53,860 bases of DNA. Origin: Acidobacteriota bacterium. Its GTDB lineage: Bacteria > Acidobacteriota > Vicinamibacteria > Vicinamibacterales > JACPPN01. Made by a program: the position numbers and the translations under genes. Positions within the stretch are counted from its first letter, which is position 1, and the number at the start of each line of letters is the position of its first letter. Where the stretch lies: positions 1 through 53,860 of the forward strand of contig JACPPN010000241.1 of assembly GCA_016190995.1 (NCBI GenBank), read 5' to 3'. The notes beneath the pieces are model-generated. The model made no database searches and was not told where the DNA came from. It saw only the letters and a program-made list of their open reading frames with translations. Of this stretch, positions 141-32,994 are shown in pieces.

Positions 141-3100
141 TCAAATGCGGCCCACCTCAAGCGTGCGGCTGGGCATCCGTGATGAACCGCGCTTCAGGAG
201 ATTGCGACCCAGCGCGACTGCCAGCCACGCCGCCATGACGAGCGGCACCGCGCCCAGCACGAGCGCCATCCTTCGATCGATCACGCCGAGATAGTGAAGG
301 TAGAGCCACCAGAAATCGAGGCTGAACGAGAACTGTTGCGAAAAATCACGCTCTGCTTCGGCGGCGGTTCTCTCCAACGGCGGGGGAGCCTCGAGGCCGG
401 CGAGGTACCGAACGTTCCGCGGCACGGCGCGGCTGGCGGCGCACGCGTTCAGCCACAGGCCCGAGGCCGACCAGGTCGAGCTGCTCGCGGCGAAGGCGGC
501 CGGTCCGATCTGGCGCGCGTACTCCACCCGCACCTTCGAGAAATCCACGATGACGGCCGGAATCTGTACCGCGATGCTGATGACGGCGGCGGCCGTCACC
601 AGGCGTTTCCTGAACGGACGCGCGTCACGCGTCAACCAGCTGGCGAGCGGCAGGCAGACGTAAGGCAGCAGCGGCACGAGATAGCGCGGCCCGTACGAGC
701 GACCGCCGGCCCATTCCGAGAGACTCGCGTAGAGAAGCAGACACGCAACCGTCGTGGCCGCGAACAGCGCCGCCGTCGCCCGATCGCGCTTGAACATGTC
801 GATGAGCGCGACCACGCCGATGATGGCAATCGGCGTGTACACGAAGAGCGACGCATGCGGAGAGAGCAGGAGACCGGAAAGCCCAGCGAGCACCGATCCA
901 CCGAGACGTGAGCTGTCGTCGCGCAGGTAACCGGTATCGAACGGGTGGCCGAACCGCGCATGGTTGTAGGCGAGCGCGATCGCTCCTGCGATCACGACCC
1001 CGGCCGACACGTTGGCCACTCGCGTGATCCGATCGCGTACCGACGCCCGCGCCTGCCAGAAGACCCAGGCGGCGATCGGGACGGTTGCGACGAGCAGTTC
1101 GTGTCGTGTCAGGAGCGCCGCCCCGAGACACCAGCTCGCCCGGCGCAGCTTGCGCAGCGATCCCGCCTGGGCGCCGCGCCACGCGCTGTACACGCCCGCC
1201 AGCAGCCAGAACGTCGCGAGCGGTGCGCTGAAGCCGAATTTCGAGTACGGCCACAGCAACGTCGCGAACGCCGCGATGAGCGCGGTGAGGGCGGCAGCCC
1301 GGGCATCCAACGTCAGGTGTGCGGCGAACAGGAATATCAACCAGACGCATCCCGCTGCCGCCACCGCCGATCCAAGCGCGACGATCGCGCGGGGGAGCGT
1401 ATCGGGCTTTCCGATCCGGACGCCGAGCAGGCGCTCGACGCTCACGCCGGCCAGATAGAAGGGCACGTTGTACAGCGACTGACCGATGCCAAACGGCGAG
1501 TAGTACCGTCCATCCTTGCCTCGCGCCGCGTCCATGCCGGCAATGTTGCCGGCGAGCGCGATCGAGCCGTGCTCGACGAGGCTTTCGGTCAGCTCGTAGC
1601 TCACAACAGCATCGGTGGATGCGAGGCTTCCGCCAGCGGTCGCCAAGTAGGTCAGGAGCGCGATTCCTGATACGGCCAGCGCGGCGCGCTGCCACGACGG
1701 AAGCGCGCGATGCGGCTCCGGCGCGCGCGTCGCGAGGCGTCCTTGCTCGAGCAGCTCCTCGGGCGAGGGCGTGCCGACAATCTCGCCCGCCAGCTCGGTG
1801 GTTTCGACGGGCACCTGTGTTGCGCGCGGTGGCCGCAGCCGCGCGGCGATTTGGCGGATGCGATCGAGCTCCCCTGTCCTGAAAAAGCCGGTCAGGGTCA
1901 GGGTCGCCGGATAGAGGAAGAGGACAACCCCGCCGCGCGCCAGAACGCCGACGATGGGAGCGACCGAGGAGGGAACGGCGACCGACGCGACCGCGTAACT
2001 CGCGAGCCCCGCGACGATCAACCGCGCAATCCGTGCGCGCTCGTAGCGGATCCGATAGAACTTCTGCGAGAACCGGAACGCCGTCGCGGCGAGCACGCCG
2101 TACGCCAGCACGTTCGCCCACGCCGCGCCCAGGACGCCGTACCGCGGAATGAGGATCAGATTGGCGCCGACGCTGGTGACGGCGGCGAACAGGGTGGCCA
2201 CCGGGTAGTACTCGGTGTGCTTCGTGATGTTCAGGCCGATCGACGTCAGCAGGTACACGCCCTGCAGCAGCACGCCGAGCGCGATCCAGGGAATGACCTC
2301 CGCCGCTCGGAAAAACGCCGGCGTCGTCATCAGGCGCACGATGTCGGTGGCGACGGCCGAAAGCCCCGTCGCGAGGAGGATGAGAGCCGCAAGCCCGTAC
2401 GTCGTGACGGCACCGAAGGTCCGCGCGGCGTCCTTCTCCCGCATGGTCGCGAAGTAGAAGGGCGCCCATGCGTACTCGAACGCGCTCAGGAACAACTTGA
2501 GCGCCAGCCCGAAGCTCGCTCCGATCGAATAGAGACCCACTTCACGAAGCGAGACGAACAGGCTCAGGAGATATCGATCGGCCACTGCCGTGACTTGCTG
2601 CGCCACACCATGCGGCACCCGGGGCAGGCCGAAGCGCAGCGCCTCGCGAAGCATCCCAGGGGAGAACATCGGCCGCAGGAGCGGCACGAACCATCGCGCA
2701 AGCACGAACGTGAACATCACGCTGACAATGATGTCCGCCAGCACGATGCCGACGATCCCCAGCCGCGCGAACGCCACGAGAATCACGCGGGCGATCAGGG
2801 TGGCCGCCGATCGACTGAACGTCAGCGATACGAAGAGCCGGGGCTGATCCGTGATGCGCAGAACGTGGAACGGGATGAAGTAGAACCCGATGACGAAGGT
2901 GTTGACGAGCGTCAGGCGCAGAACGCCCGTGTAGCCGGGCACGCCGAAGAGTCGATCAGCGATGAGTGGAGCGGCGGCGAGCGCCATGGCGAGGCACACC
3001 CCGTTGAGCGCGAAGAGGAACACGCAGAGCGTGCTCGCAAGGCGCTGCTTGGCCCGGCGATCGGGACAGTCGTAGTACAGCCGCATGAACGACGCATCGA

Positions 3101-3287
3101 CGCCCCACCGGAAGATGATCTTCGCGACCACCTCGACCGTGAGGAGGAGGCTGATGACGCCGTAGTCGGTCGCGGAGAGAAAGCGGACGTACAACGGCAG
3201 GAGCAGGAAGCTCGCAATCGAGGTAATGACGTCACCCAGGCCGTAGATGGCGAGGTTGACGAAGAGCCCTTTGATCTTCTGAAACAC
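141..3287 (-). CDS. Fusion protein: N-terminal MOP/Wzx-type polysaccharide flippase (about aa 1-480) plus C-terminal polytopic GT-C (PMT/ArnT-like) glycosyltransferase-like domain (about aa 530-1048)
   Basis: Uninterrupted 1048-codon ORF with a GTG start at 3287, 1 nt after the TGA of the upstream methyltransferase. The N-terminus 'FVNLAIYGLGDVITSIASFLLLPLYVRFLSATDYGVISLL' plus many TM segments is typical of Wzx/RfbX flippases. After a Pro/Glu-rich linker (nt ~1697-1847), 'STDAVVSYELTESLVEHGS...GKDGRYYSPFGIGQSLYNVPFY' followed by many TM helices matches COG1807/PMT_2-type lipid-carrier-dependent glycosyltransferases. Assignment is by motif recognition only. Confidence 0.7.
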   Translation of the reverse strand: MFQKIKGLFVNLAIYGLGDVITSIASFLLLPLYVRFLSATDYGVISLLLTVEVVAKIIFRWGVDASFMRLYYDCPDRRAKQRLASTLCVFLFALNGVCLAMALAAAPLIADRLFGVPGYTGVLRLTLVNTFVIGFYFIPFHVLRITDQPRLFVSLTFSRSAATLIARVILVAFARLGIVGIVLADIIVSVMFTFVLARWFVPLLRPMFSPGMLREALRFGLPRVPHGVAQQVTAVADRYLLSLFVSLREVGLYSIGASFGLALKLFLSAFEYAWAPFYFATMREKDAARTFGAVTTYGLAALILLATGLSAVATDIVRLMTTPAFFRAAEVIPWIALGVLLQGVYLLTSIGLNITKHTEYYPVATLFAAVTSVGANLILIPRYGVLGAAWANVLAYGVLAATAFRFSQKFYRIRYERARIARLIVAGLASYAVASVAVPSSVAPIVGVLARGGVVLFLYPATLTLTGFFRTGELDRIRQIAARLRPPRATQVPVETTELAGEIVGTPSPEELLEQGRLATRAPEPHRALPSWQRAALAVSGIALLTYLATAGGSLASTDAVVSYELTESLVEHGSIALAGNIAGMDAARGKDGRYYSPFGIGQSLYNVPFYLAGVSVERLLGVRIGKPDTLPRAIVALGSAVAAAGCVWLIFLFAAHLTLDARAAALTALIAAFATLLWPYSKFGFSAPLATFWLLAGVYSAWRGAQAGSLRKLRRASWCLGAALLTRHELLVATVPIAAWVFWQARASVRDRITRVANVSAGVVIAGAIALAYNHARFGHPFDTGYLRDDSSRLGGSVLAGLSGLLLSPHASLFVYTPIAIIGVVALIDMFKRDRATAALFAATTVACLLLYASLSEWAGGRSYGPRYLVPLLPYVCLPLASWLTRDARPFRKRLVTAAAVISIAVQIPAVIVDFSKVRVEYARQIGPAAFAASSSTWSASGLWLNACAASRAVPRNVRYLAGLEAPPPLERTAAEAERDFSQQFSFSLDFWWLYLHYLGVIDRRMALVLGAVPLVMAAWLAVALGRNLLKRGSSRMPSRTLEVGRI

Positions 3288-3288: not shown

Positions 3289-4008
3289 TCAGGGCTGCTC
3301 GGGTTTCCGGAAGCGGAGCAGATTCAGGAAGCACCAGCCGGGGACGGGTACGAGGCGCGTCAGCCAGCCGTGCAACGGCAGGAGCGTGGCGGGATGCCGG
3401 CGAATCCACTTCGTGAGAACCGGTACCGTCGGGAAGATCCCCCGCCGTTCGACGAGCTCGAACCCTGCGCTCTCGCAGAGCCGGATGAATTCCTCAGCGG
3501 GCCGATCGCCCGGGTGCTTCAGCTCGCTCGCCGTTCGAATGAGGCGTCCGCGCAGCAGGAAATGCATCCGCGACTGCAGGTGCGCCAGGTTCGGGATGGA
3601 GATGAGCAGCTCGCCGCCAGGCCGAAGCACGCGGGACAGCTCCCCGACCGCGATTCGTTGATCCGCGTACCCAAGATGTTCGAGCACGTCCAGACAGAGG
3701 ACACGGTCGAAACCGGCGTCGGGATAGGGCAGCGCGGCCAGAGACGCGTGCTTGACGCGGCCCGACGAGTAGTTGGGATCGATGCCTTCGATGGCGAGCT
3801 TCCGAGCGTACTCCTCGACGAGGATGCCTTCGCCGCAGCCGGCGTCGAGGACCCGTGTGTCCCGGGGCAGGGCGTCGAGGTACTGTCGGACAAGGCGAAG
3901 CTTCGCGAGGTAGGTCGGGTAAAACTCCCAGGAGGGCTCGAGCCGGCGGTGATAATCGCCGCGGGTGGCATACTCGCCGAGACGCAGGTTCGGCAAGGGC
4001 TCGGCCAT
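3289..4008 (-). CDS. Class I SAM-dependent methyltransferase
   Basis: 239 aa. Motif I 'VLDAGCGEGILVEEY' and the downstream 'FDRVLCLDVLEHL...VLRPGGELLISIPN' are typical of the Methyltransf_11/23 fold. Confidence 0.8.
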   Translation of the reverse strand: MAEPLPNLRLGEYATRGDYHRRLEPSWEFYPTYLAKLRLVRQYLDALPRDTRVLDAGCGEGILVEEYARKLAIEGIDPNYSSGRVKHASLAALPYPDAGFDRVLCLDVLEHLGYADQRIAVGELSRVLRPGGELLISIPNLAHLQSRMHFLLRGRLIRTASELKHPGDRPAEEFIRLCESAGFELVERRGIFPTVPVLTKWIRRHPATLLPLHGWLTRLVPVPGWCFLNLLRFRKPEQP

Positions 4009-4128: not shown

Positions 4129-5214
4129 TCAACGGGCGACGGCGCGCGCCCGAAGAGCGATCGCGCCCGCACCTCGCACGCGCACCGCAGGACTGTCCGC
4201 ACGCAGCATCTGGCGCAAGGTGGAGACCGGACCACGTGCCGCCGTCGTCAGAATGCGAGCAGCCTCCTTCTGGACCACCGGATTCGGATCCTGCACCGCT
4301 TCGCCCAGGACGGCCAGCGCATCGGGATCTTCGGGGAGCAGGAGCTCGGCGGCGTAGAGATAGGTCAGGCCGTCGCGATCGTGGAGCAGCGGCAGGAGCG
4401 CGGGCACCCATGACGGGTCGGCCGCTGCCGCGAGACCCTTCGCCGCCACGAGGCGAAGGTCGGGCGCCTCGCTTTGAAGCGCCTCCGACAGCACGGCATC
4501 GCCGCCCGCGTCTCCCAGGCGCTTCAGGGACGCTGCCGCGCTCACACGAACCAGAACCGAAGGATCGTCCAGGGCGGGACGCAGTGTGTCGACGGCCGTT
4601 GCATCGCCCAGCGTGCCAAGCGCCGCGGCGGCGGTGGCGCGCGGAAGAATCTCCGGATCCGCGAGCAATCTCGCGAGCGTTGGGAGACTTCCCCCATCGC
4701 CGACCTCCCCCAGCGCCTGGATTGCAGCGACGCGGATGTTGGGTGGGCCGGCCTCCGCCAACCCATTCAGACGCGACACGGCGGTTCGATCACCGCTGCG
4801 CGCCGCCGCCTGCAGAGCGGGGACATCGCCGGACGCCGCCGTCTGTCCGGTGAGCGACTGCCTGGCCTGCCGATCGCCGGCACGAGCCAGCGACTCGATG
4901 GCCTCGACGCGCACATCCGGGGCGTCCGAGCGCGAGAGCTCGAGAAGTTCCGCACGCGCGATCGTCGCGAGCAGCGGCAGGTCCTCGTTGCCTGTTTGCG
5001 CGATGAACTGCTCGTAGGCCGACAGCGCCTGCCGCGTGTTCTTCCCGGCGAGCGCCGACTCGATTCGCTGAGCGGCCGCGCGCCGACCCGGCGCCTGTCC
5101 TTCCGCCGCGATTCCCGGCGCAGGAAGTCCTGCCGTGAATGCGAGCGCGCACACCAGGGGTGACACGATCACGGTGAAGCTCTGATTTAAACCTCTCATC
5201 GTCATCGATCTCAA
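4129..5214 (-). CDS. Secreted HEAT-repeat (PBS-lyase HEAT-like) protein
   Basis: 361 aa. N-terminal signal-like 'FTVIVSPLVCALAFTAGLPAPGIAAEG'. Repeated units include 'PDVRVEAIESLARAGD', 'NIRVAAIQALGEVGD', 'PRATAAAALGTLGD', 'VLVRVSAAASLKRLGD', 'PDLRLVAAKGLAAAAD' and 'NPVVQKEAARIL'. Confidence 0.75.
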   Translation of the reverse strand: MRSMTMRGLNQSFTVIVSPLVCALAFTAGLPAPGIAAEGQAPGRRAAAQRIESALAGKNTRQALSAYEQFIAQTGNEDLPLLATIARAELLELSRSDAPDVRVEAIESLARAGDRQARQSLTGQTAASGDVPALQAAARSGDRTAVSRLNGLAEAGPPNIRVAAIQALGEVGDGGSLPTLARLLADPEILPRATAAAALGTLGDATAVDTLRPALDDPSVLVRVSAAASLKRLGDAGGDAVLSEALQSEAPDLRLVAAKGLAAAADPSWVPALLPLLHDRDGLTYLYAAELLLPEDPDALAVLGEAVQDPNPVVQKEAARILTTAARGPVSTLRQMLRADSPAVRVRGAGAIALRARAVAR

Positions 5215-5340: not shown

Positions 5341-6660
5341 CTACTTGTACCTGAAGCCGTTTGCCAGCGTGCCGCTCTGGCTGTCCGGGTTCGTCACGAC
5401 GACATCCACCAGTCCCGCGGCATGCGGAGGGGAAATCGCCAGTATCGTGGTCTTGCTGATGACCTGGACGTTGGTCGCGGGTACGCCACCGAGCGTGACC
5501 GTCGCGCCCACGACGAAATCCGTGCCCATCAGACGGAGGGGCATTCCTCCGCCAACAGGGCCTTCCAGGGGAAGAACGCGCGTGACGGTGGGCGCGGGCA
5601 CCTGCGCCTGGTACGTATAGCCGTTCAGCAGGGCTCCCGACTGCAGGTCCGGGTTGGTCACCAGGACGTTGAACGTTCCTGCCGAGCGCGGTCCGGTGAG
5701 CGCCGTGATCGTGGTTGAATTCAACACCTGCACGTTGGTGGCCGCCGCGCCGCCAATCGACACGATGGCGCCGTTGGCGAAATAGAGGCCGGTAATCGTG
5801 ATGGGCGTGCCGCCCGCCGTGCTGCCCTGGTTCGGATTGACGCTCTGGACGATGGGCGCCGGGGCGGGCACACCCGCGACGTAGGTGTAGCCGTGGTAGA
5901 TCATCCCCGACTGTCCGTCAGGATTGGTGACGATGACGTTGACAATGTCGGGGGCGCGAGGCGCCGTGAACGCCGTAATCGTATTCGAGTCGACGACCAC
6001 GACGTTGGTGGCCGCCACCTTGCCGATCAACACCGTGGCTCCCGCAACGAAGTATGCCCCGTTGATCGTGACGAACGTGCCGCCCGCCGTGCTGCCCTGG
6101 TTCGGCGTGATTGTCTGCGGAGCTGGCGCCGACGCCTGGCCGGGCGGAACGTAGGTGTACCCGTGGATCAGGATGCCGGACTGGCCGTCGGGATTCGTCA
6201 CGAGGACGTTCACGAAATCCGCGGCCCGCGGCCCGGTCACCGCCGTGATGGTCGTGGAATCGACGACCACGACGTTCGAAGCCGAGACCTTCCCGATCTT
6301 CACGGTCGCGCCGTTGCCGAACCCGGTGCCGCGAATCGTCACCGGGGTCCCGCCGGCCGTGCTCCCCTGGTTCGGCGAAACGCTCTGAACCGTCGGCGCC
6401 GGTGCCGCGACGTACGTGAAGAGCGCCGTTGCGGTCTGCCCGTCGAGGTTGGTGACGACGAGATTGACGGCGCCTGGGGCATGCGGCGGCGTGACACCCG
6501 TGATAGTGGTGCTTTGAACGACGAGATTCGTTGGCGCGGACCCGCCGATCGTCACCGTGGTTCCCTCGCCGAAATTGAGGCCGGTGATCGTGAACGGCGT
6601 ACCGCCCAGGCTCGTGCCCTGGTTCGGGCTGAGATTCTGAATGATGGGAGGCGGCGCGAA
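5341..6660 (-). repeat. Five tandem coding repeats (about 252-270 bp each) encoding the IPT/TIG domains
   Basis: A 29-nt block 'gtgccgcccgccgtgctgccctggttcgg' occurs at 5807 and again, identically, at 6077. A near-copy 'gtcccgccggccgtgctcccctggttcgg' is at 6347 (270-bp period) and a more diverged copy is near 6599. Confidence 0.8.
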
Positions 6661-8244
6661 GTCGTCGTTGACAATGGTGCCAACCCCTTGGGAGTCCTGA
6701 ATGGGCGCGTTGGTCGCGTTGCTCAGGTTCACGACAAACGTCTCGTTCGGCTCGATGGCCGTGTCACCGTTGACGGTAATCGACACCGGCTGCGTCGTCG
6801 TGCCTGGATTGAACGTCAGCGTGCCCGATTTCGACACGTAGTCGCTGCCGGCGCTCGCCGTGCCGTTCGCGGTCGCGTAGTCGACCGTAATCGTCTGCGA
6901 GCTCGAGGCGGTCAGGCTGACGTTGAATGTCGCCGTGACCGTCCCGCCGTTCCCCTCGGTTACCGATACGTCGTTGATGCCCAGCGATGGCGGTCCGCTC
7001 GAGCTCGAGGTCTGCAGGAACTGGGCGACCGGCTGCGCGTAACTGCGGGACGTCACCAGCAGCCATTGCTTGACGTCCTCGCTGGGGGCCACGCGCGGGT
7101 TGAACGTGCCGGCTCCGCCCGCTGCGGTCACGAAGAAGTCGGGTGACGGGACTCCCGTTGCGCTGATTTCCGCACCCTTGTCTTCGGGACTGTTGCTCTG
7201 AAAGACGGCCAAGTACGTGCCGGAGATTGGATTGCGGTCGACGTCGAGCGCGCCGTACGACGAATAGCAGCAGGCAATCGCGATCTTGTTGCCCGCTGTC
7301 GTCCCGTTCGCGTTGACGAAGTTGCCGTAGATCGTTCCGTTCCCGACAAAATTGAACCAGACGACGAAGTATCGCTGGCTCGAAGGATCGTAGGTGGTCT
7401 GCGGAGCCGACACGAACGCGGCGGTGTCGAGGATGGTCGGTGAGCCCAGGACTGCACCCGTTCCCGACTGCACGCGCGTGCCGTAGATGCGATCGACGCC
7501 GCCGCCGTTAAAGTGATAGGTGATGAGGAACTCGTTGGCGCTGGCGTTGTATCCAATCGACGGTTGATCCTCGAAATCCGGATTCTGGGTAATCACGATC
7601 TCCGAGCCAAGCAACTGTCCCGCATTGCCGACGCGCCTCATCCTGATGTCGTTGGCCGCCGGCGCCTCAACCTGGTACGCGACACCGAATTCATCGGCGC
7701 TCGTCGAGTACGCGATCGCGGCCGCGTTGCCCGCGCGCGCGGTTTGTCCTGGAGACGAGATTCTGAAGTCGTTCGTGAGGAACGTCGGCACGCCACCCTG
7801 GAACGCGAGAATGCGCCCCCAGATTTCCGAGACTGCGGGGTTGACGCGACCATCCAACCACGTCACCAGGAAGGCGCCCGTGTCGGGGCTGTAGGCGACC
7901 CGCGCCGTCTGTGTGTACGCGTTCGTCTGATGAATCTTGAAGACCGCGCTGGCGAACGTGCGGTCCGGATTCACGAACCGCCCGAGCGTCGGGTGGTTTC
8001 CCCAGACCGCGAGATACACATGATTGACGGGATCGTAAGCCACGTCCGGATCGCGCACGAGCGGTCCCAATGGAACGATCCCGAACGTCGGACCGAGCAT
8101 CGATACCTGCGCATCCGCCATCGACGGCGCAACGAGCATGATCGTCGCGACGACACACCGGGCAGCGAGATGAAAGGGGCGGGTCAATGAGCGCACGGGA
8201 CCTCCCGTTGGCAGGTGAGTGCAGACGTGGAACCTATCGGACAT
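5341..8244 (-). CDS. Secreted multidomain surface protein: signal peptide, about seven ~45-aa repeats (beta-propeller-like), a Calx-beta domain and five tandem IPT/TIG domains
   Basis: The ORF runs 5341-8367. The likely start is the ATG at 8244 ('MSDRF...'), followed by the hydrophobic segment 'AARCVVATIMLVAPSMADA'. 'VSVTEGNGGTVTATFNVSLTASSSQTITVDYATANGTASAGSDYVSKSGTLTFNPG...ETFVVNLSN' is a textbook Calx-beta. Five C-terminal ~85-90 aa units of the type 'SV.PNQGSTAGGTP.TI.G..F..GA.V.IG...A.NV.VV.S.TI.A.T.PR....VNV.VTNPDGQSG....YTY' match IPT/TIG. Confidence 0.8.
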   Translation of the reverse strand: MSDRFHVCTHLPTGGPVRSLTRPFHLAARCVVATIMLVAPSMADAQVSMLGPTFGIVPLGPLVRDPDVAYDPVNHVYLAVWGNHPTLGRFVNPDRTFASAVFKIHQTNAYTQTARVAYSPDTGAFLVTWLDGRVNPAVSEIWGRILAFQGGVPTFLTNDFRISSPGQTARAGNAAAIAYSTSADEFGVAYQVEAPAANDIRMRRVGNAGQLLGSEIVITQNPDFEDQPSIGYNASANEFLITYHFNGGGVDRIYGTRVQSGTGAVLGSPTILDTAAFVSAPQTTYDPSSQRYFVVWFNFVGNGTIYGNFVNANGTTAGNKIAIACCYSSYGALDVDRNPISGTYLAVFQSNSPEDKGAEISATGVPSPDFFVTAAGGAGTFNPRVAPSEDVKQWLLVTSRSYAQPVAQFLQTSSSSGPPSLGINDVSVTEGNGGTVTATFNVSLTASSSQTITVDYATANGTASAGSDYVSKSGTLTFNPGTTTQPVSITVNGDTAIEPNETFVVNLSNATNAPIQDSQGVGTIVNDDFAPPPIIQNLSPNQGTSLGGTPFTITGLNFGEGTTVTIGGSAPTNLVVQSTTITGVTPPHAPGAVNLVVTNLDGQTATALFTYVAAPAPTVQSVSPNQGSTAGGTPVTIRGTGFGNGATVKIGKVSASNVVVVDSTTITAVTGPRAADFVNVLVTNPDGQSGILIHGYTYVPPGQASAPAPQTITPNQGSTAGGTFVTINGAYFVAGATVLIGKVAATNVVVVDSNTITAFTAPRAPDIVNVIVTNPDGQSGMIYHGYTYVAGVPAPAPIVQSVNPNQGSTAGGTPITITGLYFANGAIVSIGGAAATNVQVLNSTTITALTGPRSAGTFNVLVTNPDLQSGALLNGYTYQAQVPAPTVTRVLPLEGPVGGGMPLRLMGTDFVVGATVTLGGVPATNVQVISKTTILAISPPHAAGLVDVVVTNPDSQSGTLANGFRYK

Positions 8245-8430
8245 CCACCGCCATCCGAATAGGGATGTGACAAGAGTTCGAATGTATTGTTGGGCTTCGG
8301 GTCTGCTGCTGGGACGGCAAGGCCGAAGAACGCGACACACTGTAAGGGATTGGTGCGGATCGGTCAAGCGGGGTGAGCGCCGGAACGTAGGCGGGCGTCG
8401 CCCACGACCGACCGCCGGTCCGATTACGGA

Positions 8431-10038
8431 TCAGCTCGGTACCCGGCGGTACAGCACGAAATCCTCGATGTCGGTCTCGTGGCTGTATCGGCCAAGCAGA
8501 TCTTGAATGGGCGGCGACGCAAAATGCTCGTCGGCATTCCGATCGTTGCGCTCCAGGATGAAGTATGCGGGCGGAGTCTGACGAAGGCTCGCGGCAAGCG
8601 TGGCGAGCGTGAAGTCGGGATGAACAAACATGCCGGAGACGGCCGGCGCTATCCAGACGAAGCGGTTTGCCGGCAATCTCAGACTGGCGAAGTACACCCC
8701 GGGCTGCATGCCGAAGATGAACACGCGGTCGGCGGGTGAGGTGTGCGCGCGCAGATACGCGGCGAGCTCCGCGTTCGCGCGTGCCGAATACCCCCGTCCG
8801 TTGGCGTATCCGCCGAATCGTTCCAGGTACGCCTCCTGGCGATCGCCGTCACGCGTCAACTGCTGCAGATTGGCGGCCGTCACGAGGTACACCCGCCGTG
8901 TGTAGCCGTAGTGGGCGATCACCGCAGCCGCGAGAATGGCGGCACTTGCCTGCACCGCAACCCGCCGCCGCGACGCGCTCGCGAACAACCCTGCAGCCAA
9001 CAACGCCAGCGGCGGCAGCGAAGGAATGAAGTAGGTCGTGAACAGGCGTGCGCCGCTTGCGAACGCGCCGGCGAGGGCGCCTGCCAGCCAGAGGGCGCCC
9101 AGGGCGGAGCCGACGTCCACCTCGCGACGCCGAATCCAATCCCATGCGGCAACACAAATGGCCACCCCGCCCAGCAGCCACAGCGCGTCTGTCTTGACTC
9201 GCAGCCAGCCCTCCTTTAGGAAAGCGATGGCGAAGGCATCCCACCGCAGCTCGAAGGCGAGGTAGCTCGCGTTGTATCCGAAGATCGCGACCCTTGCATC
9301 CTCACCGGCGTTCTGGCTCCAGAGCCACGCCCCCACGATAGCAGGCACCGCGAGCAGTCCGAGCATCGAGAGCCCCGCGGTCTTGAACAGGCGGTGGTCT
9401 GGGTTCACGAGTTTCGTGAAGAGCAAGAGCGCGGGCCAATAGAAAACGGCGACGGGCTTGAAGACGAGGGCGGCGCCCAGAAGGGCTCCCCAGGCCCACG
9501 ACGCCCAACCCGGACGCCCTTGGGCATCGGCGGCCCGGAACGCGGCGGCGGCCATCAGGGTGCACATGAATACTTCGGGCACAGCTCGCTCGAGGAACCC
9601 GCCGTACTTGTACTGACCTGCCGGTATGGTCAGGACGACGTACAGGGCGGCTGCACGGAGCCCGCGCGCGGAGCCGCCACACCGCCGCCCGACCAGAAAG
9701 AGAAACAACCCCGTCAGGGCTGTTGTGAAGATATCGAGCGCCGCAACGGCCTTCGTCGTCGGACCCCAGACGAGGAATGCGGCCAGGTAGGTCAGGTGGA
9801 TGCCGGGCGGCTTTTGATCCCAGAGATCGCCATAGGGACGCAAGCCTTCGTGCAGTCCCCAGCCGATTGTCGCGAAAATGCCCTGATCGATTCCCAGTGG
9901 TTCGGCGACGATCGGTACACGGACGAGGAGTCCTCCCATGACGGCGGCCACCCATAGCGCGGCGATCAGCCGAGAGGGTGTTTGTTCACGACGGCGGACG
10001 GTACGGAGCAGGCCGTGCGGCCGAGGCCACGCCGTCAC
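8431..10038 (-). CDS. Polytopic GT-C-like membrane glycosyltransferase (PMT/ArnT-like family)
   Basis: The ORF extends to 10278, but its first 80 codons are Arg/Pro-rich and overlap the upstream gene. A GTG at 10038 forms a GTGA overlap with the stop of the radical SAM gene. 'LIAALWVAAVMGGLLVRVPIVAEPLGIDQGIFATIGWGLHEGLRPYGDLWDQKPPGIHLTYLAAF' is followed by about 10 TM segments and a soluble C-terminal domain. Confidence 0.65.
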   Translation of the reverse strand: MTAWPRPHGLLRTVRRREQTPSRLIAALWVAAVMGGLLVRVPIVAEPLGIDQGIFATIGWGLHEGLRPYGDLWDQKPPGIHLTYLAAFLVWGPTTKAVAALDIFTTALTGLFLFLVGRRCGGSARGLRAAALYVVLTIPAGQYKYGGFLERAVPEVFMCTLMAAAAFRAADAQGRPGWASWAWGALLGAALVFKPVAVFYWPALLLFTKLVNPDHRLFKTAGLSMLGLLAVPAIVGAWLWSQNAGEDARVAIFGYNASYLAFELRWDAFAIAFLKEGWLRVKTDALWLLGGVAICVAAWDWIRRREVDVGSALGALWLAGALAGAFASGARLFTTYFIPSLPPLALLAAGLFASASRRRVAVQASAAILAAAVIAHYGYTRRVYLVTAANLQQLTRDGDRQEAYLERFGGYANGRGYSARANAELAAYLRAHTSPADRVFIFGMQPGVYFASLRLPANRFVWIAPAVSGMFVHPDFTLATLAASLRQTPPAYFILERNDRNADEHFASPPIQDLLGRYSHETDIEDFVLYRRVPS

Positions 10039-10988
10039 GCGAGTTTCGTCACCCACAGCGGCGAATCTTTCTTGGGCAGGTCGCACGACCGACAGATGTC
10101 CGGGCCGCCGCTTTCGAGATGCTGGCGGCGGACGCGACGGTAGGGCTCGGAGTTCCAGATCTGCCGGATGCCCGACGTGCGGAGATCTCCCAGGATCTCC
10201 TTGCCGTCGAAATCCGCGCAGCACAGCGACACGCGGCCATCCCACAGCACCGTGAAGGTGAGCCAGGGACGATAGCACGGGTACGCGACGTTCGATTCCC
10301 GGTTGAGTGTACCCGCCCAGTTGTGCAGGTCGGTGACGTGAATCTTGTCTGCGATCGATCGCCAGTGCTCGATGAACGCGCGCTCCTCCTCCGAGTTGTT
10401 CTGCCGCACGAACGACAGAATCAGCTTGGGGCGCCGCCGCCCCAGCTCGGATCGGATTCGGACGAGCTGCTCGATGTTGGCGATGACCTTGTCGTACTTG
10501 AGGCCGACACGCGTCCGCTCGAAGACCTCTTTGCCCGAGGCGTCAACGCTGACGTTGATGGCGTCGAGCCCCGCCTCGATCATCCCGCGGGCGGTCTCGT
10601 CGGAGATCAGGGAGCCGTTGCTGATCATGCCCACTTCCGCAATTCCTGTCTGCTTCGCGTACCGCACTTTGTCGACGAGCGTGCGATCGATGAACGGCTC
10701 CCCGTAGTTGTGCACGCGGACGTGGCGGATGCCGAGATCCGCGCACTCGTCGACAATCTTGCGGTAGAGCAGCATGTCCATCACACCCTGCCGGCGAAGC
10801 ATGTCGTCGCGCGGGCAGAAGGTGCACTTGGCGTTGCAGATGTTCGTGCTCTCGATCTGGACGATTTCGGGAAGGTGAGGCGCCGCGTCGCGGCCGGCGA
10901 AGAGAAGGGCGCGGCGCAGCGGCTTCGCGTTCCGGAGCAGCAGCGCTTCGATTGAGCGCCGCGCGCGCCGCCCGAGGCCGGCCATCAC
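10035..10988 (-). CDS. Radical SAM enzyme with C-terminal SPASM/twitch-like Cys cluster
   Basis: The CX3CX2C motif 'NICNAKCTFCPRD' is present. The C-terminal cysteines 'PCYRPW...VSLCCADFDG...ICRSCDL' are also present. The start (GTG 10988 or ATG 10985) overlaps the stop of the upstream SDR gene. Confidence 0.8.
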   Translation of the reverse strand: MMAGLGRRARRSIEALLLRNAKPLRRALLFAGRDAAPHLPEIVQIESTNICNAKCTFCPRDDMLRRQGVMDMLLYRKIVDECADLGIRHVRVHNYGEPFIDRTLVDKVRYAKQTGIAEVGMISNGSLISDETARGMIEAGLDAINVSVDASGKEVFERTRVGLKYDKVIANIEQLVRIRSELGRRRPKLILSFVRQNNSEEERAFIEHWRSIADKIHVTDLHNWAGTLNRESNVAYPCYRPWLTFTVLWDGRVSLCCADFDGKEILGDLRTSGIRQIWNSEPYRRVRRQHLESGGPDICRSCDLPKKDSPLWVTKLA

Positions 10989-11959
10989 GCGAGCCCGACC
11001 GTCTCCTGGAAGGAGCTGACGACTGTGGCAAGAATCTCGTCGAGCTGCACGCGGGGCTCGTAGCCGACGAGCGCCTGAATCTTACTGATGTCAGGGACGC
11101 GGCGGGGCATGTCCTCGAATCCGGCCTCGTACGCCCGGTCGTACGGGATGGTGACGATTTCCGACGAGCTGGCGGTGATGGCCTTGATGCGTTCGGCCAG
11201 CGCGCGGATCGTGATTTCCTGGCCGTTGCCGATATTGAAGACCTCACCCACGGCCCGCGGCTCCCTGGCCAGCGTCATCATCGCCTTGACGACATCGCCG
11301 ACGTAGGTGAAGCTCCGTGACTGCGATCCGTCGCCGAACACGGTAATCGGCTGACCGAGCAGCGCCTGACGGACGAAGGTCGGAATGACCATGCCGTACC
11401 GACCGGTCTGGCGGGGCCCGACGGTGTTGAAGAGCCGGAGAATGATCACCGGCAGCCGCTTCTCCTTCCAGTACGCGAGCGCCAGGAACTCATCGATCGC
11501 CTTGCTGCAGGCGTACGCCCACCGATGTTTCGTGGTCGGGCCAAGCACCAGGTCGGCATCCTCGCGGAACGGCACCGTCGCGCTCTTGCCGTACACCTCC
11601 GAGGTTGAGGCGATGACGACCAGCTTCTTCTTCTTGTTCGCGTGCTTCAAGACGACTTCCGTGCCGTGCACGTTGGTCTCGATGGTGCGCACCGGCGCCT
11701 CCACGATCAGCTTGACCCCGACCGCCGCCGCCAGGTGGAAGATGACGTCACATCGATCGATCTGCTCGGCGAGGACCGGCTCGTTCGCGACCGAGTCGAT
11801 CGTGTAGTGAAATTTTCGGTTCGCCTTGAGGTGCTCGATGTTGTCCATCGAGCCGGTCGACAAATCGTCGAGCGCGTAGACTTCGTGGCCGCCAGTGAGC
11901 AGTGCTTCGGCCAGGTGGGACCCGATGAAACCGGCCCCGCCGGTGATGAGCACACGCAT
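10985..11959 (-). CDS. UDP-glucuronate decarboxylase-type extended SDR (ArnA C-terminal domain / UXS-like)
   Basis: The true start is the ATG at 11959 ('MRVLITGGAGFIGSHL'); the track ORF that extends to 12460 is a spurious extension overlapping the upstream gene. 'IASTSEVYGKS...GPTTKHRWAYACSKAIDEFL...RLFNTVGPRQ' closely parallels ArnA 'STSEVYG...PRWIYSVSKQLLD...RPFNWMGPR'. Confidence 0.85.
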   Translation of the reverse strand: MRVLITGGAGFIGSHLAEALLTGGHEVYALDDLSTGSMDNIEHLKANRKFHYTIDSVANEPVLAEQIDRCDVIFHLAAAVGVKLIVEAPVRTIETNVHGTEVVLKHANKKKKLVVIASTSEVYGKSATVPFREDADLVLGPTTKHRWAYACSKAIDEFLALAYWKEKRLPVIILRLFNTVGPRQTGRYGMVIPTFVRQALLGQPITVFGDGSQSRSFTYVGDVVKAMMTLAREPRAVGEVFNIGNGQEITIRALAERIKAITASSSEIVTIPYDRAYEAGFEDMPRRVPDISKIQALVGYEPRVQLDEILATVVSSFQETVGLA

Positions 11960-11972
11960 GATTGAGGTCCGT

Positions 11973-13838
11973 CTATCGGCTGAGTTGGATGGAACGGCGA
12001 CGCTCAGCATACCAGCTTGCCAGGTATTCTGCCATGAAGCGGTGACCCGCCGGCGACCAGTGGCAGTCGGCGCGCAAGTGTAGCGGCGGCGCGCCCGCGC
12101 GATGGCGCGCACGCATGGCCGCAGTGGGGTCGAGGAACTCGAGGCCATAACGGCGGCAAACGTCGGCGAGCCAGTCCTGCAAGCCTGATGTCGGCGGCAG
12201 CACGGTGGCGTCGTCCACGCGATCGAAGTAGCGGCCCGCCGCGCACTCGTCGGTGGAAACCTGGAGCGGATTGGTGACGTACACGACAACGAGCCGGCCA
12301 CTATCGGCCTGCACGTCCTCTGCAAACAGCCGGAGGATGCGCTCGCTCGACGCCGCAGCGTTCCGTTGCTCGGTGGTCCAGAGACTCCGCGGCCGCATGC
12401 TCGGCCAGAATTTCGTCTGGGCGATCGGTCGCAACCGATTGGGGAGCGCGCGCGGATCATCGCGAAGCAGATGCTCGATGTCTCGCGATTCGAGCGGCTC
12501 TTCTGCGGCCATCCTCCGCGCTTGCGCCTTCACCGCCTCGAGGCCGGCGTCCCTGGCGGTGGTCGTCGGACGTTGCCGACTGAGGTTGAAGAGGCGCCTC
12601 ACCTGCAGCTCGCCCAGGCGCTGAACGGTGTATTCGACGAGCTGAAAGGTCCGGAGCCATCGGAACCACAACCACCGCGGCCCGATCCGCAGATCGAAGT
12701 AGGCCGGGCGGCCGGACGAGGTCAGGACGGCCCGATAGTCGGCGGCCTCGTCGCGCGCGATCCAGAGGTCGTTCCAGAAAAAGAAGAGGAGGACCACTTT
12801 GGGATGCAACTGGCGTCCGACTTTCAGGTACCAGTTCCACTCGAGCAGCGGTGACCAGCCCAAGACGCCATGGCTCGCGACCGCCGCACGGAGGCCGCGC
12901 CCTTCGAGCGCCGATTGCAGCCGTGGGGTGACGGTCTGTTCCCACGCGATCTGCTGCGCCTGAATGAAGCTGTCGCCGAGAAGCAGGATGTCGACACGCG
13001 ACCTGCGGAGCTCGGGGCCGCGCATCCCGAGCGAGTTTGTCTCGATGAGCACCGGCGGAAACTCGTCCAGGGGCTGCGGGTGGCGGATGAACGCCGATCG
13101 TGGGGCGGTGTTGTGATGGAACTGGCGGACGTACGTGGGGTCGTCGAACGCCATGAGCCCCTCAGCGACATGCATTCCACGCAGCGCGCCCTCCATCACC
13201 GCCAACGTCACCATCGTCGATCCCGCAATCGTGAGGGTGTTGCGAACGGCGATCGCGCTCCCCGTCAGCGCGCCCGACGCCATCAGGAGCGCGGCCGCCA
13301 TGACGATCACGGAAATCCAAAAGGAGAATCCCGAGACACCCAGCGAGAGGCCCTGCAGCGCGGCCGTGAGGAGAAGGAGGGCTGCCCCGAGGAGCCACGA
13401 GCGGGTGGATGACCAGGCCGGCTGTTCGCGTGCGCGCGCGAGCCACAGAAGCGACCAGTCAACGAGCGCGAAACACACGAAGAGGCGTAGCTGCCACGGA
13501 CGCTGGAACCACCAGAGCAGGCGAGTCGAGACGGCAGCTACGAGCAGCGGCCATCCCGCAAGGGCGATGATGCGATCTCGAGGCGACGGGGCGCGCGCCG
13601 CCGAGTCGCCCCGTGCCTCCGACCCTCTCGGCCACAACGTGCTGCGGGCGCTCACGACGAGCGCGAGCAGTCCGGCCCCGAGCGCGAGCGTGTACGACAC
13701 CGAATAGCGTCCTGCGATTCGGGCGGTCGTGCTGCGCCCTCCAAAGAGATTCACGTACAGCAGAAGGAGGACGATCCAGCTCGCCACGAGCAGAGCCTGA
13801 TGAGGACGGCTGCTGATGAGACGATGCAAGTCGTTCAA
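11973..13838 (-). CDS. Membrane protein with C-terminal SGNH/GDSL-type hydrolase or acyltransferase domain (AlgX/AlgJ-like)
   Basis: A TTG start at 13838 overlaps the upstream TGA (TTGA). The N-terminal ~230 aa are multi-TM. The C-terminal domain has the 'ILLLGDSFIQ' (GDS block) and 'ADCHWSPAGHRFMAEYL' (catalytic His block) motifs. Confidence 0.65.
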   Translation of the reverse strand: MNDLHRLISSRPHQALLVASWIVLLLLYVNLFGGRSTTARIAGRYSVSYTLALGAGLLALVVSARSTLWPRGSEARGDSAARAPSPRDRIIALAGWPLLVAAVSTRLLWWFQRPWQLRLFVCFALVDWSLLWLARAREQPAWSSTRSWLLGAALLLLTAALQGLSLGVSGFSFWISVIVMAAALLMASGALTGSAIAVRNTLTIAGSTMVTLAVMEGALRGMHVAEGLMAFDDPTYVRQFHHNTAPRSAFIRHPQPLDEFPPVLIETNSLGMRGPELRRSRVDILLLGDSFIQAQQIAWEQTVTPRLQSALEGRGLRAAVASHGVLGWSPLLEWNWYLKVGRQLHPKVVLLFFFWNDLWIARDEAADYRAVLTSSGRPAYFDLRIGPRWLWFRWLRTFQLVEYTVQRLGELQVRRLFNLSRQRPTTTARDAGLEAVKAQARRMAAEEPLESRDIEHLLRDDPRALPNRLRPIAQTKFWPSMRPRSLWTTEQRNAAASSERILRLFAEDVQADSGRLVVVYVTNPLQVSTDECAAGRYFDRVDDATVLPPTSGLQDWLADVCRRYGLEFLDPTAAMRARHRAGAPPLHLRADCHWSPAGHRFMAEYLASWYAERRRSIQLSR

Positions 13839-15751
13839 CGATGCGCTGAGCGGGGTGGGACGGGATCGGAGTCGCGAACGGGTCGTGCGACATCCGGCGA
13901 AGCAACGTGACGCGATGCCAGCCCGAGGATCGCGTCGCCGGCGCGTCTGGCCGCGCCGCCGTCGCTCACACTCGACGATCGTTCGAGGAGGGCCCGGCCG
14001 GATCGCGTCAACGTGTCCCGAGCGCGCTCATCATACACGAGCGCCCGGAGCTTCAATGACACGTCGTCCTGCGATTGCGCTCCCGCCATCGCGCCCGCAT
14101 CGACGAACGGGCTGAGATTGTTGGGCAACGCCACGACCAGCGCAGGAATCCCGAGCGTCAGACCATCCACCGCGACCGTTGAGTTGACGGTCACGACGAG
14201 TCGCGCGACGGCGAGCAGGCGCGCAAGATCCGCCGAGCCGTCCGCAACCACGACGTTCGCGGCCCCCGCCGCCGCCCGCCGATAGGGCTCGGGCGATTCG
14301 GCCGGATGCGCTTTCACGACGAGCTTTACCTCGGGCATGCCTGCAGCCGCCTGCACCAGCGATCCGAAGGTTCCGCCAATCTGCGAGTACTTCGACGCCA
14401 CCAGGACGATCGGCTGATCGGCATCGGCGCCGACACCGCGCCGCGCCTGCTGTCGATCGTCTTCGGTCAGCGATCGAACGGCGGCAAGGAGCGCGTCCAG
14501 ACGGGGGCTCCCGGTCACCACGAGAGCGCTCGGGGGAAAGCGTCCGGCGTCGATGAGGTGCCGCGCCGTGAGCTCGTCATAGACGAGCGTCAGGTCGGGC
14601 AGGGGAAAGCCACGATCGGCCGAGTTGACGGCCGACGGCTGCATTTCGTCCGGCTCGTGCAGATAGTTCAGCCAGTGGCGGTAGATGAACCCATGCTGCA
14701 GGCCGACGAACGGAATGCCGCGGCGACGCGCATCGAGAGCGAGGGCGCGACCCCATCCGCCAGCCTCGGCGTACGTCACCGCGACGTGCGGCTCCAAGGC
14801 GTCGAGGGCAGCGCCCGCTTCATCCATGGCGCGCGCGGACCACGGGAACTGCAGGTGACACACCCCAGCGAGTTCAGCCTGGACGATCGGCCATACGTCG
14901 CAACCGCGGATGATCGCGGCATCGCGGACATCGCAGCTCGTCTCGAGCGCGCGCAACATCGCCTGGCGTTCGCGCCACACGGCCTGAGATGGCCGGACGG
15001 CCTCCGCCGGGACGTACTTCTCGATTGGGGTGACCTGCATCGTTTCGAGAGCGCCGGCCCTGAACTCCGCCAGACGCTCGCGCCACCCGCGCGCCCGGTA
15101 GTTCGTGCGGGGGCCCAGTCCGATGAGACGCATCGCGTCCCAGCCGATTCGGCCCACGAGCTCGCGCACGACGGGACCGACGTACGCTTCATCGCCGCGA
15201 TCGGCACGCCAGAACGCCGAGTGAATGAAGGTCGCAATCGGCGCGCGCTCATCACGTCGACGAGCGCGCGTGCCCCGCCGTTCCCGAATCGCGGCGGTCC
15301 AGGCATAGAACGCGGCGCGCGCGGCCGTGCGGGCGCGATCCACCGCCCGCGCTCGGGAGGGCCAGCCCTCGTCGCCGGCGTACGCCACGCCGAGACGTCG
15401 CGCGATTTGCGGGGCGAGGCCGCGGACGAGCGCGTCGGGAGACTTCGCCGCAAGCGTGCGTGGCTGCTCCCGCTCGATCAGTGCTTCGAGCGCGTAGATC
15501 GTCTTCAGGAGCGCCGCGATCCGTTGGCCCTTGTGGAGGAACAGCTCGGCCGACCACCACAGCGAGTCGCCGCGGTATGTGAAGCGATCGCGGAACGAGA
15601 GATTGTCGACGCGCGTGAGCCGAAGCTGTTTGATCCAGCGATTCGCATCGCCCTCGGCCGCTTCGGCGTCTGACGCGTCCAGATAGCTCCCGAGCAGGAC
15701 GGTCCTGCGTCCACCGTTGCCGAGAACGATTTCCGTCTCAAGGGCTCTCAT
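13835..15751 (-). CDS. Putative GT-B-fold transferase (TagF/KpsC-like, 'HP' motif); function uncertain
   Basis: The likely start is the ATG at 15751 ('MRALETEIV'), 20 nt after the GT9 stop. The C-terminal half 'PIVLVASKYS...KLVVKAHPAESPE...LLAVARLVVTVNSTVAVDGLTLGIPALVV' resembles capsule/teichoic-type GT-B transferases. The coding call is solid; the family call is weak. Confidence 0.55.
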   Translation of the reverse strand: MRALETEIVLGNGGRRTVLLGSYLDASDAEAAEGDANRWIKQLRLTRVDNLSFRDRFTYRGDSLWWSAELFLHKGQRIAALLKTIYALEALIEREQPRTLAAKSPDALVRGLAPQIARRLGVAYAGDEGWPSRARAVDRARTAARAAFYAWTAAIRERRGTRARRRDERAPIATFIHSAFWRADRGDEAYVGPVVRELVGRIGWDAMRLIGLGPRTNYRARGWRERLAEFRAGALETMQVTPIEKYVPAEAVRPSQAVWRERQAMLRALETSCDVRDAAIIRGCDVWPIVQAELAGVCHLQFPWSARAMDEAGAALDALEPHVAVTYAEAGGWGRALALDARRRGIPFVGLQHGFIYRHWLNYLHEPDEMQPSAVNSADRGFPLPDLTLVYDELTARHLIDAGRFPPSALVVTGSPRLDALLAAVRSLTEDDRQQARRGVGADADQPIVLVASKYSQIGGTFGSLVQAAAGMPEVKLVVKAHPAESPEPYRRAAAGAANVVVADGSADLARLLAVARLVVTVNSTVAVDGLTLGIPALVVALPNNLSPFVDAGAMAGAQSQDDVSLKLRALVYDERARDTLTRSGRALLERSSSVSDGGAARRAGDAILGLASRHVASPDVARPVRDSDPVPPRSAHR

Positions 15752-15770
15752 GGCAACGTCGCCTGCGGGG

Positions 15771-16979: not shown

Positions 16980-17261
16980 GGATTGGGCAGGCAGCCTGGC
17001 AGCCGCGGTCGGCCGCCGGGTGGCGCGGCACGGAATCGGCCGAGACGCTCCACCAGTGTACCCCGAACCTTCAGCGCGGCTCCGACCCGACGCCTGTCGT
17101 CCGATGGCAGCGTGCTCACGCTACCGTCGAGCTCGCGCGAAGTGGGCGCCAAGCTTCAGGCCCTCACCGCGCACCGGGAACGTGGCACCGGGACCCTGGA
17201 ACCGGCACGATTTCTTCTAACGCTCTCAGCAGCCGCCCTCAGCACCCATCATTCGGAACGG

Positions 17262-19772: not shown

Positions 19773-19892
19773 TCGATTCTTTCAACCTGAATCCGACGTC
19801 AAAAGCTCTCACCGCGGAGCACGCGAAGGACGCGGAGACTGGGAAAACCAGGCAATTCACATCCTCTCGTTGGCGAGAGCGTGCGGCGACCC

Positions 19893-22824: not shown

Positions 22825-22935
22825 CGACCTGAATGACAGCGCATCGAAGCCGTAAACCTTACCATAGCAATCACTTGAACGACAAGAGAGGCAGCCGCGA
22901 GCATCGCGCGCGGTACGGCGCTACACTCGAAGTCT

Positions 22936-23559: not shown

Positions 23560-23572
23560 CGGCCCTGGTCGG

Positions 23573-25524: not shown

Positions 25525-25537
25525 GACGGCCACCGGG

Positions 25538-26812: not shown

Positions 26813-26845
26813 GAGCGGGAACGGCGTGCGGCCCGAGCCGGCGCG

Positions 26846-28717: not shown

Positions 28718-28724
28718 GAGCGGA

Positions 28725-31704: not shown

Positions 31705-31709
31705 GTCTG

Positions 31710-32986: not shown

Positions 32987-32994
32987 GAGTTGAC

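Follow-up and report, generated by a model that had tools for sequence, protein, structure and literature searches.

A reading frame joining two membrane domains

We analysed a 53,860-bp contig (the window, meaning the whole stretch of DNA examined) of an NCBI 'Acidobacteria bacterium' metagenome-assembled genome (MAG) from an uncultured soil acidobacterium. At one end the window carries a single open reading frame (ORF) whose product is predicted to consist of a MOP-superfamily flippase followed by a GT-C-fold glycosyltransferase. The most likely explanation is that two operon-linked genes, normally separate, have truly become joined in frame. The initial annotation of this DNA had described a 1048-codon ORF free of stops at positions 141–3287; we find exactly this ORF and place it on the minus strand, which the annotation had left unstated. 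Translation of the plus strand over the same interval gives stops throughout. The ORF and its parts are the following:

141–3287, minus strand: fused flippase–GT-C ORF, 1048 sense codons, with a GTG start at 3285–3287 and a single terminal stop at 141–143
1878–3287, minus strand: predicted MOP-superfamily lipid-linked-glycan flippase domain, residues 1–470, with 14 transmembrane (TM) helices and both termini cytoplasmic (Pfam, AlphaFold, Foldseek)
1689–1877, minus strand: predicted cytoplasmic junction, residues 471–533, an Arg-rich helix (471–484) followed by a disordered linker rich in Pro, Glu, Arg and Ala
1776–1796, minus strand: ELAGEIV tail motif, residues 498–504, common to fused and unfused orthologous flippases (junction alignments)
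144–1688, minus strand: predicted GT-C-fold glycosyltransferase domain, residues 534–1048, with TM1 at residues ~535–553 (Pfam PMT, AlphaFold, Foldseek)

The start codon lies 1 base past the stop of an upstream methyltransferase gene, and the N-terminus of the protein aligns with the first residues of its orthologues (MFQK[IV]KGLF). The G+C content of third codon positions (GC3) is 0.77–0.95 in all 60-codon windows of the ORF, including the linker (0.77–0.82), and base composition is smooth across the region. Because GC3 is high throughout, the N-terminus matches that of orthologues and the domain scores exceed curated thresholds, the ORF is really coding and is more than a chance long frame in GC-rich DNA. 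An NCBI protein (P0001), annotated as 'polysaccharide biosynthesis C-terminal domain-containing protein', is 100% identical to the fused product.

The N-terminal half resembles Wzx and MurJ flippases

A hidden Markov model scan places the N-terminal half in two Pfam families, Polysacc_synt_3 (PF13440; 47.4 bits against a cut-off of 23, residues 34–320) and Polysacc_synt (PF01943; 40.4 bits against 28.2, residues 11–277). The AlphaFold model of residues 1–560 (118 sequences; predicted local distance difference test score (pLDDT) 87.9) comprises 14 TM helices followed by the short Arg-rich helix 471–484. In Foldseek it matches best WzxE, a flippase of lipid III, and MurJ, a flippase of lipid II (template-modelling score (TM-score) of up to 0.83, E value 1e-8), and it aligns with the 14-TM MurJ over ~500 columns, in agreement with the two-lobed MOP fold of 12–14 helices. 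In the N-in topology, the loops carry 30 Lys and Arg residues on the cytoplasmic side versus 7 on the periplasmic side. All invariant residues of the family are retained in the fused copy. Domain scores and fold thus bear out the annotation's description of the first ~480 residues as a MOP/Wzx flippase, and this half is predicted to be a MOP flippase of the Wzx/MurJ kind. Against the equivalog model for the holdfast flippase HfsF (NCBIfam NF050818) it scores 54.3 bits, under a cut-off of 700; it appears to be a relative, not an equivalog, of HfsF.

The fused flippase shares with WzxE (PDB 9g9n) and MurJ (PDB 6nc6) the overall fold, cytoplasmic termini and membership of Polysacc_synt, has 14 helices as MurJ does, and lies in a glycan-biosynthesis cluster. 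It differs from these solved flippases, to which it is only 13–19% identical, in carrying the ELAGEIV tail motif and a covalently attached GT-C domain.

The C-terminal half adopts a GT-C fold in its model

The C-terminal half matches Pfam PMT (PF02366, CAZy GT39/GT83-like) with 29.6 bits against a cut-off of 22.7 over residues 602–748. The AlphaFold model of residues 520–1048 (109 sequences) has a pLDDT of 93.6 and a predicted template-modelling score (pTM) of 0.93. Its top ~37 Foldseek matches in the PDB are all GT-C enzymes (probability 1.00, TM-score ~0.45–0.5, identity 9–16%), and include ALG12, STT3, AglB, ArnT, ALG9, AftA, Pmt4, PglB, AftB, EmbC, DPY19 and PimE. This is the GT-C homology and fold expected of the PMT/ArnT-like polytopic domain that the annotation had read in the last ~520 residues. 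Given the identity of 9–16% and the TM-scores of ~0.45–0.5 to all solved GT-Cs, the model suggests a GT-C fold without a close solved relative, to which no subfamily is clearly nearest.

The equivalog model for ArnT (NCBIfam NF009784) gives 18.1 bits against a cut-off of 567. The LA_3751/LA_3752 putative glycosyltransferase family (NF047440) is matched over residues 637–907 with 80.9 bits and an E value of 8e-23; by sequence it appears to be the nearest named family, though the score is below the cut-off of 200. A search of the full protein by sequence against PDB chains returned no match, and the sole PDB sequence match of a profile of the GT-C family is TMEM260 (E value 6.5e-4), restricted to the membrane core. 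TMEM260 was not among the fold-search matches of the GT-C model; whether the fold library includes it was not checked.

The invariant residues of the family are kept. Asp559 (nt 1611–1613), where the first periplasmic loop begins after TM1, is an Asp in 109 of 109 homologues when a 2-residue indel is allowed, and position 565 is Glu or Asp in 104 of them. Asp559, Asp592, Arg778, Asp915 and Asp991 are each conserved in 108–109 of the 109 homologues; Glu565 and Asp790 show the same complete or near-complete invariance as the last four of these, and the fused copy has every one of these residues. Just ahead of the last helix lies an invariant 'SLDFWWLYL' motif (residues ~989–997, within 144–320, minus strand), in which all 109 of the 109 homologues have Asp991 and Trp994; its likeness to the oligosaccharyltransferase motif WWDYG is superficial. 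Sequence and model together point to an intact enzyme fold in a family almost confined to Vicinamibacteria and other Acidobacteriota.

Compared with the GT-Cs that use polyprenyl-phosphate sugars (ArnT, PMT/Pmt4, ALG9/ALG12, AftA/AftB, EmbC and PimE) and with STT3, AglB and PglB, the fused domain shares the fold, the PMT match and the loop Asp, and its size of ~515 residues is typical of ArnT, the ALG enzymes and PimE. It differs from solved GT-Cs in falling below the ArnT and LA_3751/LA_3752 cut-offs and in its lack of a large periplasmic domain: the 515-residue model is almost wholly helical and contains no C-terminal domain of the STT3/AglB/PglB kind. The two halves were modelled separately, and the models carry no inter-domain geometry. 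A mixed full-length alignment (A2) intended for a whole-protein model was dropped, as its GT-C-only rows were misplaced (18–25% identity).

The junction retains a whole flippase and nearly all of the GT-C

The linker between the two domains spans ~65 residues, and pLDDT falls to 30–55 from residue ~485 to the end of the flippase model at 560. The linker sequence that the annotation had quoted, RLRPPRATQVPVETTELAGEIVGTPSPEELLEQGRLATRAPEPH (residues 484–527, nt ~1707–1838), lies within the Pro/Glu-rich stretch that it had placed at nt ~1697–1847. Although the disordered cytoplasmic tails of this flippase subfamily (the window, P0002, P0008, P0052 and P0275–P0326) vary in other respects, they keep the tail motif, in the form E-[LM]-A-G-[ED]-[IV]-V, which could be a docking peptide.

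The tail motif and the first helix of the GT-C share one frame, 29 codons apart, with no in-frame ATG, GTG or TTG between them. Within residues 470–560 the only such codons are GTG492, ahead of the motif, and TTG548, inside TM1. The other forward frames contain no stop at the junction before residue ~545, and between nt 1650 and 1900 we found no frameshift, internal stop or leftover start. The fused flippase extends 29 residues past the tail motif, against 9–46 (median 23) in unfused flippases, so that the linker is like the natural tails of unfused flippases in length as well as in composition. By sequence, the join appears almost seamless: a whole flippase with its tail motif, and then a GT-C short of only a few N-terminal residues.

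The 14 helices, the N-in orientation and the charge bias indicate that the linker leaves the flippase on the cytoplasmic side, which answers the question of its membrane side that the annotation had raised. In solved GT-C structures, helix 1 is entered from the cytoplasm and the first loop, which carries catalytic residues, is periplasmic. We oriented the GT-C half by homology to these structures, since its own positive-inside count was uninformative: assignment of DSSP helices to TM segments was ambiguous and the helix number is not fixed. The models therefore predict a cytoplasmic linker and a periplasmic Asp559, an arrangement that would respect the native topology of both halves.

Other fusions and split genes in relatives

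We ran HMMER exhaustively against 1.84 billion cluster representatives and recovered only the query and one further protein (P0052) that span both halves; the other top matches were flippase-only (~480–540 residues) or GT-C-only (~500–530 residues). P0052, from a separate JGI sample (L005) and truncated by the contig end, is of the same fusion type: one frame runs through flippase helix 14, 'AELAGEIVG', a 33-residue linker and a GT-C of the same family.

A second fusion type is found in P0003, P0006 and P0007, proteins of Vicinamibacterales MAGs annotated as 'oligosaccharide flippase family protein', which join an orthologous flippase to a different, PMT_2-type GT-C and are 47–54% identical end-to-end across three lineages. 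Their flippases are 51–57% identical to the window fusion's N-terminal half, and they share with it the tail motif, the logic of a cytoplasmic linker and the upstream methyltransferase context; on the P0007 contig (L158, the sole one of the three inspected) the same methyltransferase and radical-SAM genes are present. They differ in their GT-C, which has an 'NPDEVS' loop and an extra C-terminal domain of ~300 residues. This GT-C shows no BLASTP similarity at E ≤ 0.01 to either the fused GT-C or the second GT-C of the window (8431–10278), which rules out that it is the latter. Conservation of the second type end-to-end in three lineages indicates that this flippase, once joined to a GT-C, is passed on and kept in that form. 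The architecture is thus rare and not unique, with one further case of the same type and a second fusion type in the databases.

Seven loci where a long open frame upstream of the GT-C homologue suggested a further fusion (L060, L028, L056, L048, L031, L038 and L053) were rejected, as these frames hold no extra domain. Five proteins from ENA long-contig assemblies (P0004, P0005, P0009, P0010 and P0011) present apparent methyltransferase–flippase and flippase–X fusions (X is described below) or long extensions; they include Arg/Pro-rich out-of-frame stretches, and we treated them as frameshifted. They show that false joins between these operon neighbours arise in public assemblies.

In almost all relatives the two halves are separate genes, often adjacent in one operon, which is the Rosetta-stone pattern the annotation had proposed to look for. 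More than 500 GT-C homologues (45–53% identity), mostly from Vicinamibacterales MAGs, all stand alone. The relative closest to both halves encodes the flippase P0283 (65% identity) and the GT-C P0014 (53%) in adjacent, translationally coupled genes that overlap by 4 bp and are read in different frames; on its contig the pair comes after HEAT, PMT_2 and TIG genes, which is also the gene set of the window. At five loci (L011, L024, L065, L067 and L091) the order on one strand is flippase, X, GT-C. Within 7 kb of the GT-C family at 48 species loci, we found X at 32, a MOP flippase at 20, an ArnC-like GT2 at 17 and a DegT aminotransferase at 16; counted as orthologues, the GT2, DegT and dehydratase genes occur near the GT-C family at 16–22 of the 48.

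X is a membrane protein of ~470 residues (L005:1797–3209, L008:10598–11986, L009:2994–4427 and L091:2772–4151) that is often encoded between the flippase and GT-C genes; it follows the fusion on the P0052 contig and is not in the window, the last 140 nt of which show no start of an X-like gene. A scan of X returned no Pfam or NCBIfam match. It carries an N-terminal GT-C-like loop, 'GDAxHYYxxLRSxVFDxDLHF', and is weakly similar to residues ~800–908 of the GT-C half; by sequence, X is probably another GT-C-like enzyme.

A surface-glycan gene cluster

The fusion lies at the end of a surface-glycan cluster of ~29 kb on the minus strand (~141 to ~28,870), which includes an Arn-like pathway for a lipid-phosphate aminosugar. 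The other features of the window are:

3289–4008, minus strand: S-adenosylmethionine (SAM)-dependent methyltransferase, immediately upstream of the fusion; relatives also have it ahead of the flippase
4129–5214, minus strand: HEAT-repeat protein, also found on the closest unfused relative's contig
5341–8367, minus strand: secreted 1008-residue protein with five TIG domains and one Calx-beta domain, part of the gene set that the closest unfused relative has on its contig
8431–10278, minus strand: second GT-C, PMT_2, 615 residues, likewise found on the closest unfused relative's contig
10035–10988, minus strand: radical SAM/SPASM protein, a member of the glycan cluster
10985–12460, minus strand: ArnA-C/UDP-4-keto-pentose-synthase-like dehydratase (by best matches) in a 491-residue ORF
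within 10035–28870, minus strand: SGNH/AlgX-like protein, 672-residue surface-carbohydrate protein and GT9 (domain scan)
17262–19772, minus strand: 836-residue GT-C-like membrane protein with a weak LA_3751-family match
19893–21008, minus strand: DegT aminotransferase, best matches PseC and ArnB
21005–22033, minus strand: 4,6-dehydratase
22030–22824, minus strand: ArnC-like GT2, 264 residues; every best match is a polyprenyl-phosphate sugar synthase (ArnC, PgfS, Dol-P-hexose transferase, AglJ, PpgS)
25538–26812, minus strand: 424-residue PMT_2-like protein, match just under the cut-off
within 10035–28870, minus strand: GT4 and two further GT2s
~31249–50369, plus strand: dcw division/cell-wall cluster, with mraW, a penicillin-binding protein with a PASTA domain, two Mur-ligase-family genes, mraY, murD and further ORFs

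Orthologues of the methyltransferase, 67–70% identical, lie upstream of the flippase at L006, L007 and L009, and a methyltransferase is also present at L158. Counting the fusion, at least 4 GT-C-type enzymes are encoded in the ~29 kb of the cluster. The radical SAM/SPASM gene, unusual for a polysaccharide locus, is conserved in the cluster (73% median identity, 9 of 48 loci) and occurs at L008, L009 and L158, thus beside the other fusion type too. The TIG protein has a signal-peptide-like segment at residues ~70–86 and an N-terminal region of ~450 residues without a Pfam match; its TIG repeats carry SPNQGSTAGGTPVTI, and FG-GAP repeats are present in the homologues at L008. We regard it as a possible surface protein linked to the glycan cluster. 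As the dcw cluster follows from ~31 kb, the glycan cluster sits in an ordinary chromosome.

Some longest-ORF calls on the minus strand overlap by hundreds of bases (10985–12460 with 11973–13838, and 8431–10278 with 10035–10988). The dehydratase domain begins at residue ~170 of its 491-residue ORF, the true start of which is probably internal, and the PMT_2 ORF opens with ~100 Arg/Pro-rich residues that are probably untranslated.

The cluster recalls the three-component systems ArnC/ArnEF/ArnT, GtrB/GtrA/GtrC and CsbB/GtcA/YfhO (PMC7389260), in which a lipid-phosphate sugar is made inside, flipped and used outside: it encodes an ArnC-like GT2, an ArnB/PseC-like aminotransferase, an ArnA-C-like dehydratase and GT-Cs. 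It differs in that the flippase is a 14-helix MOP protein instead of a small GtrA/SMR-type protein, and is fused to a GT-C.

Proposed role of the fusion and alternative explanations

Taken as a whole, we consider it probable that the ORF is a genuine fusion in which the flippase domain exports a diphosphate-linked oligosaccharide and the tethered GT-C adds a sugar. The fusion provides Rosetta-stone evidence that the MOP flippase and the GT-C act together, and this is backed by the operons of relatives and by the second fusion type. In our model, the cytoplasmic GT2, GT4 and GT9 enzymes of the cluster would build a polyprenyl-diphosphate-linked oligosaccharide, which the flippase domain would move to the periplasmic leaflet. 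There, the GT-C would add a sugar to the flipped glycan, or to a growing polymer; its donor would be a polyprenyl-phosphate amino-sugar, which the DegT aminotransferase, the dehydratases and the ArnC-like GT2 would together supply. Fused, the two membrane machines would be present in a 1:1 ratio and side by side, and flipping might in this way be coupled to transfer physically; a shared channel would not be required.

Several observations weigh against this account. The fusion is absent from the closest flippase orthologues (55–66% identity), 120 of 120 of which stand alone, and the fused locus appears in 0 of 66 species-representative loci and 0 of 80 metagenome loci, which marks it as very rare. 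The exact protein occurs on one contig only, so its junction is known from that assembled contig alone. P0052 and the window fusion are not each other's nearest relatives; the neighbour-joining tree is star-like and does not separate one origin of the same-type fusions from two. No GT-C of this family lies within 9 kb of the closest flippase orthologues (L006–L009), which indicates that the pairing is not obligatory. In the window, we identified no initiating phosphoglycosyl transferase, Wzy or export genes besides MraY of the dcw cluster. Finally, the substrate, the acceptor and the part of the flipped lipid, as acceptor or as donor, are what we infer.

The fusion itself could be an artefact, if a one-base indel in the MAG consensus merged separate, overlapping flippase and GT-C genes. 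This seems improbable given the continuous coding signal, with GC3 unbroken over the linker, and the lack of any start or stop remnant at the junction. The tail motif and TM1 of the GT-C lie in one frame with no start codon between them; a separate GT-C would have to begin at GTG492, before the motif, or at TTG548, which would delete TM1; and the other forward frames hold no leftover stop before residue ~545. The linker has the length and composition of unfused flippase tails, the same fusion occurs in a separate sample (P0052), and the second type extends over ~1000 residues in three lineages. Conversely, P0283 and P0014 lie in different frames with a 4-bp overlap, so that a single indel could merge such a pair, and off-frame stops are few in GC-rich DNA. 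The protein is found on a single contig, the five ENA proteins are visibly frameshifted apparent fusions, and an occasional error is to be expected among hundreds of database homologues. A real fusion might also be mechanistically neutral: a small deletion would have removed the stop/start overlap of two co-translated operon neighbours, and the flexible linker would leave both halves to work as before, with no advantage or channelling. The long, disordered linker, the rare and phylogenetically scattered occurrence and the retention of family-invariant residues by both halves, as if they were independent, lend this reading some weight, and among the alternatives it is the one we take most seriously, although we think it doubtful. 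Maintenance of the second fusion type at 47–54% identity argues at least for tolerance and probably for benefit, and even a neutral fusion would imply the same membrane neighbourhood and the same stoichiometry for both proteins.

If the fusion is real and functional, the main mechanistic rival to our preferred account is that the MOP domain flips the donor, the polyprenyl-monophosphate amino-sugar of the ArnC-like GT2, in place of ArnE/F or GtrA, and passes it directly to the GT-C. Gene fusions most often join consecutive steps, which this reading would satisfy; the GT-C family co-occurs with the ArnC-like GT2, DegT and dehydratase genes, and a 515-residue GT-C without a large periplasmic domain resembles the lipid-monophosphate-sugar users ArnT, ALG and PimE. 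The scanned parts of the window have no domain annotation of a GtrA- or ArnE/F-type small flippase, but ORFs shorter than 80–90 residues, where GtrA- and SMR-like genes would fall, were not searched. To our knowledge, diphosphate-linked oligosaccharides or lipid II are the substrates of the MOP flippases characterised so far, and monophosphate-linked monosaccharides are not. Moreover, a flippase lies near the GT-C family at only 20 of 48 loci, and many of these flippases are distant (37–41% identity) and on the opposite strand. We therefore judge donor flipping unlikely. Less likely still is protein glycosylation, a poorly supported reading in which the GT-C half, by itself or together with the cluster's other GT-Cs, would glycosylate the neighbouring five-TIG protein in the manner of TMEM260, or of an oligosaccharyltransferase using the flipped glycan. 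TMEM260 is a eukaryotic O-mannosyltransferase specific for IPT/TIG domains (PMC10214176; bioRxiv 10.64898/2026.03.17.711096), in which a GT-C core is combined with a luminal acceptor-binding module of Rossmann-like and TPR domains (bioRxiv 10.64898/2026.03.17.711096). The profile match to TMEM260, the only one in the PDB, is suggestive, as are the five-TIG gene three genes upstream, its counterpart on the contig of the closest relative and the presence of STT3, AglB and PglB among the top fold matches. The match is weak and covers the membrane core only, however, and the acceptor-binding soluble domains are absent from the GT-C model. The published sequon has no exact match in the TIG repeats, which read PNQGSTAGGTPVT; a TIG homologue is found near the GT-C family at only 3 of 48 species loci; and the fold matches favour no single GT-C subfamily.

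Implications for flippase–transferase coupling

A full-text literature search found no description or characterised example of a MOP-flippase/GT-C fusion, in keeping with the annotation's remark that it knew of no characterised case, and the fusions in the databases are uncharacterised. The nearest printed idea that we found is the multifunctionality proposed for Pseudomonas aeruginosa TfpW, with translocation and transfer in one GT-C-type polypeptide (bioRxiv 10.1101/2020.04.19.049825); there the proposal concerns a single GT-C-type protein with no separate MOP flippase domain. What is new in the window is a covalent arrangement, previously undescribed, of parts from known superfamilies; no new chemistry is demonstrated.

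Which flippase serves which periplasmic glycosyltransferase, and whether flipping and transfer are physically coupled, are long-standing questions about how bacteria assemble their surface glycans. Coupling has been proposed for Wzx–Wzy–WaaL complexes and for MurJ with its synthases, mostly on genetic evidence. Were donor flipping to be correct, it would widen the substrate range of MOP flippases and offer the first natural flippase–transferase complex open to structural study. The fusion is a useful natural handle on flippase–transferase coupling and on an uncharacterised glycan system of Vicinamibacteria. It draws attention to a large uncharacterised family of GT-Cs and to its partner X in the Vicinamibacteria, which are abundant in soil, and it supplies a defined pair, either fused or split (P0283 and P0014), suited to co-purification, cryo-EM and assays of flipping or transfer.

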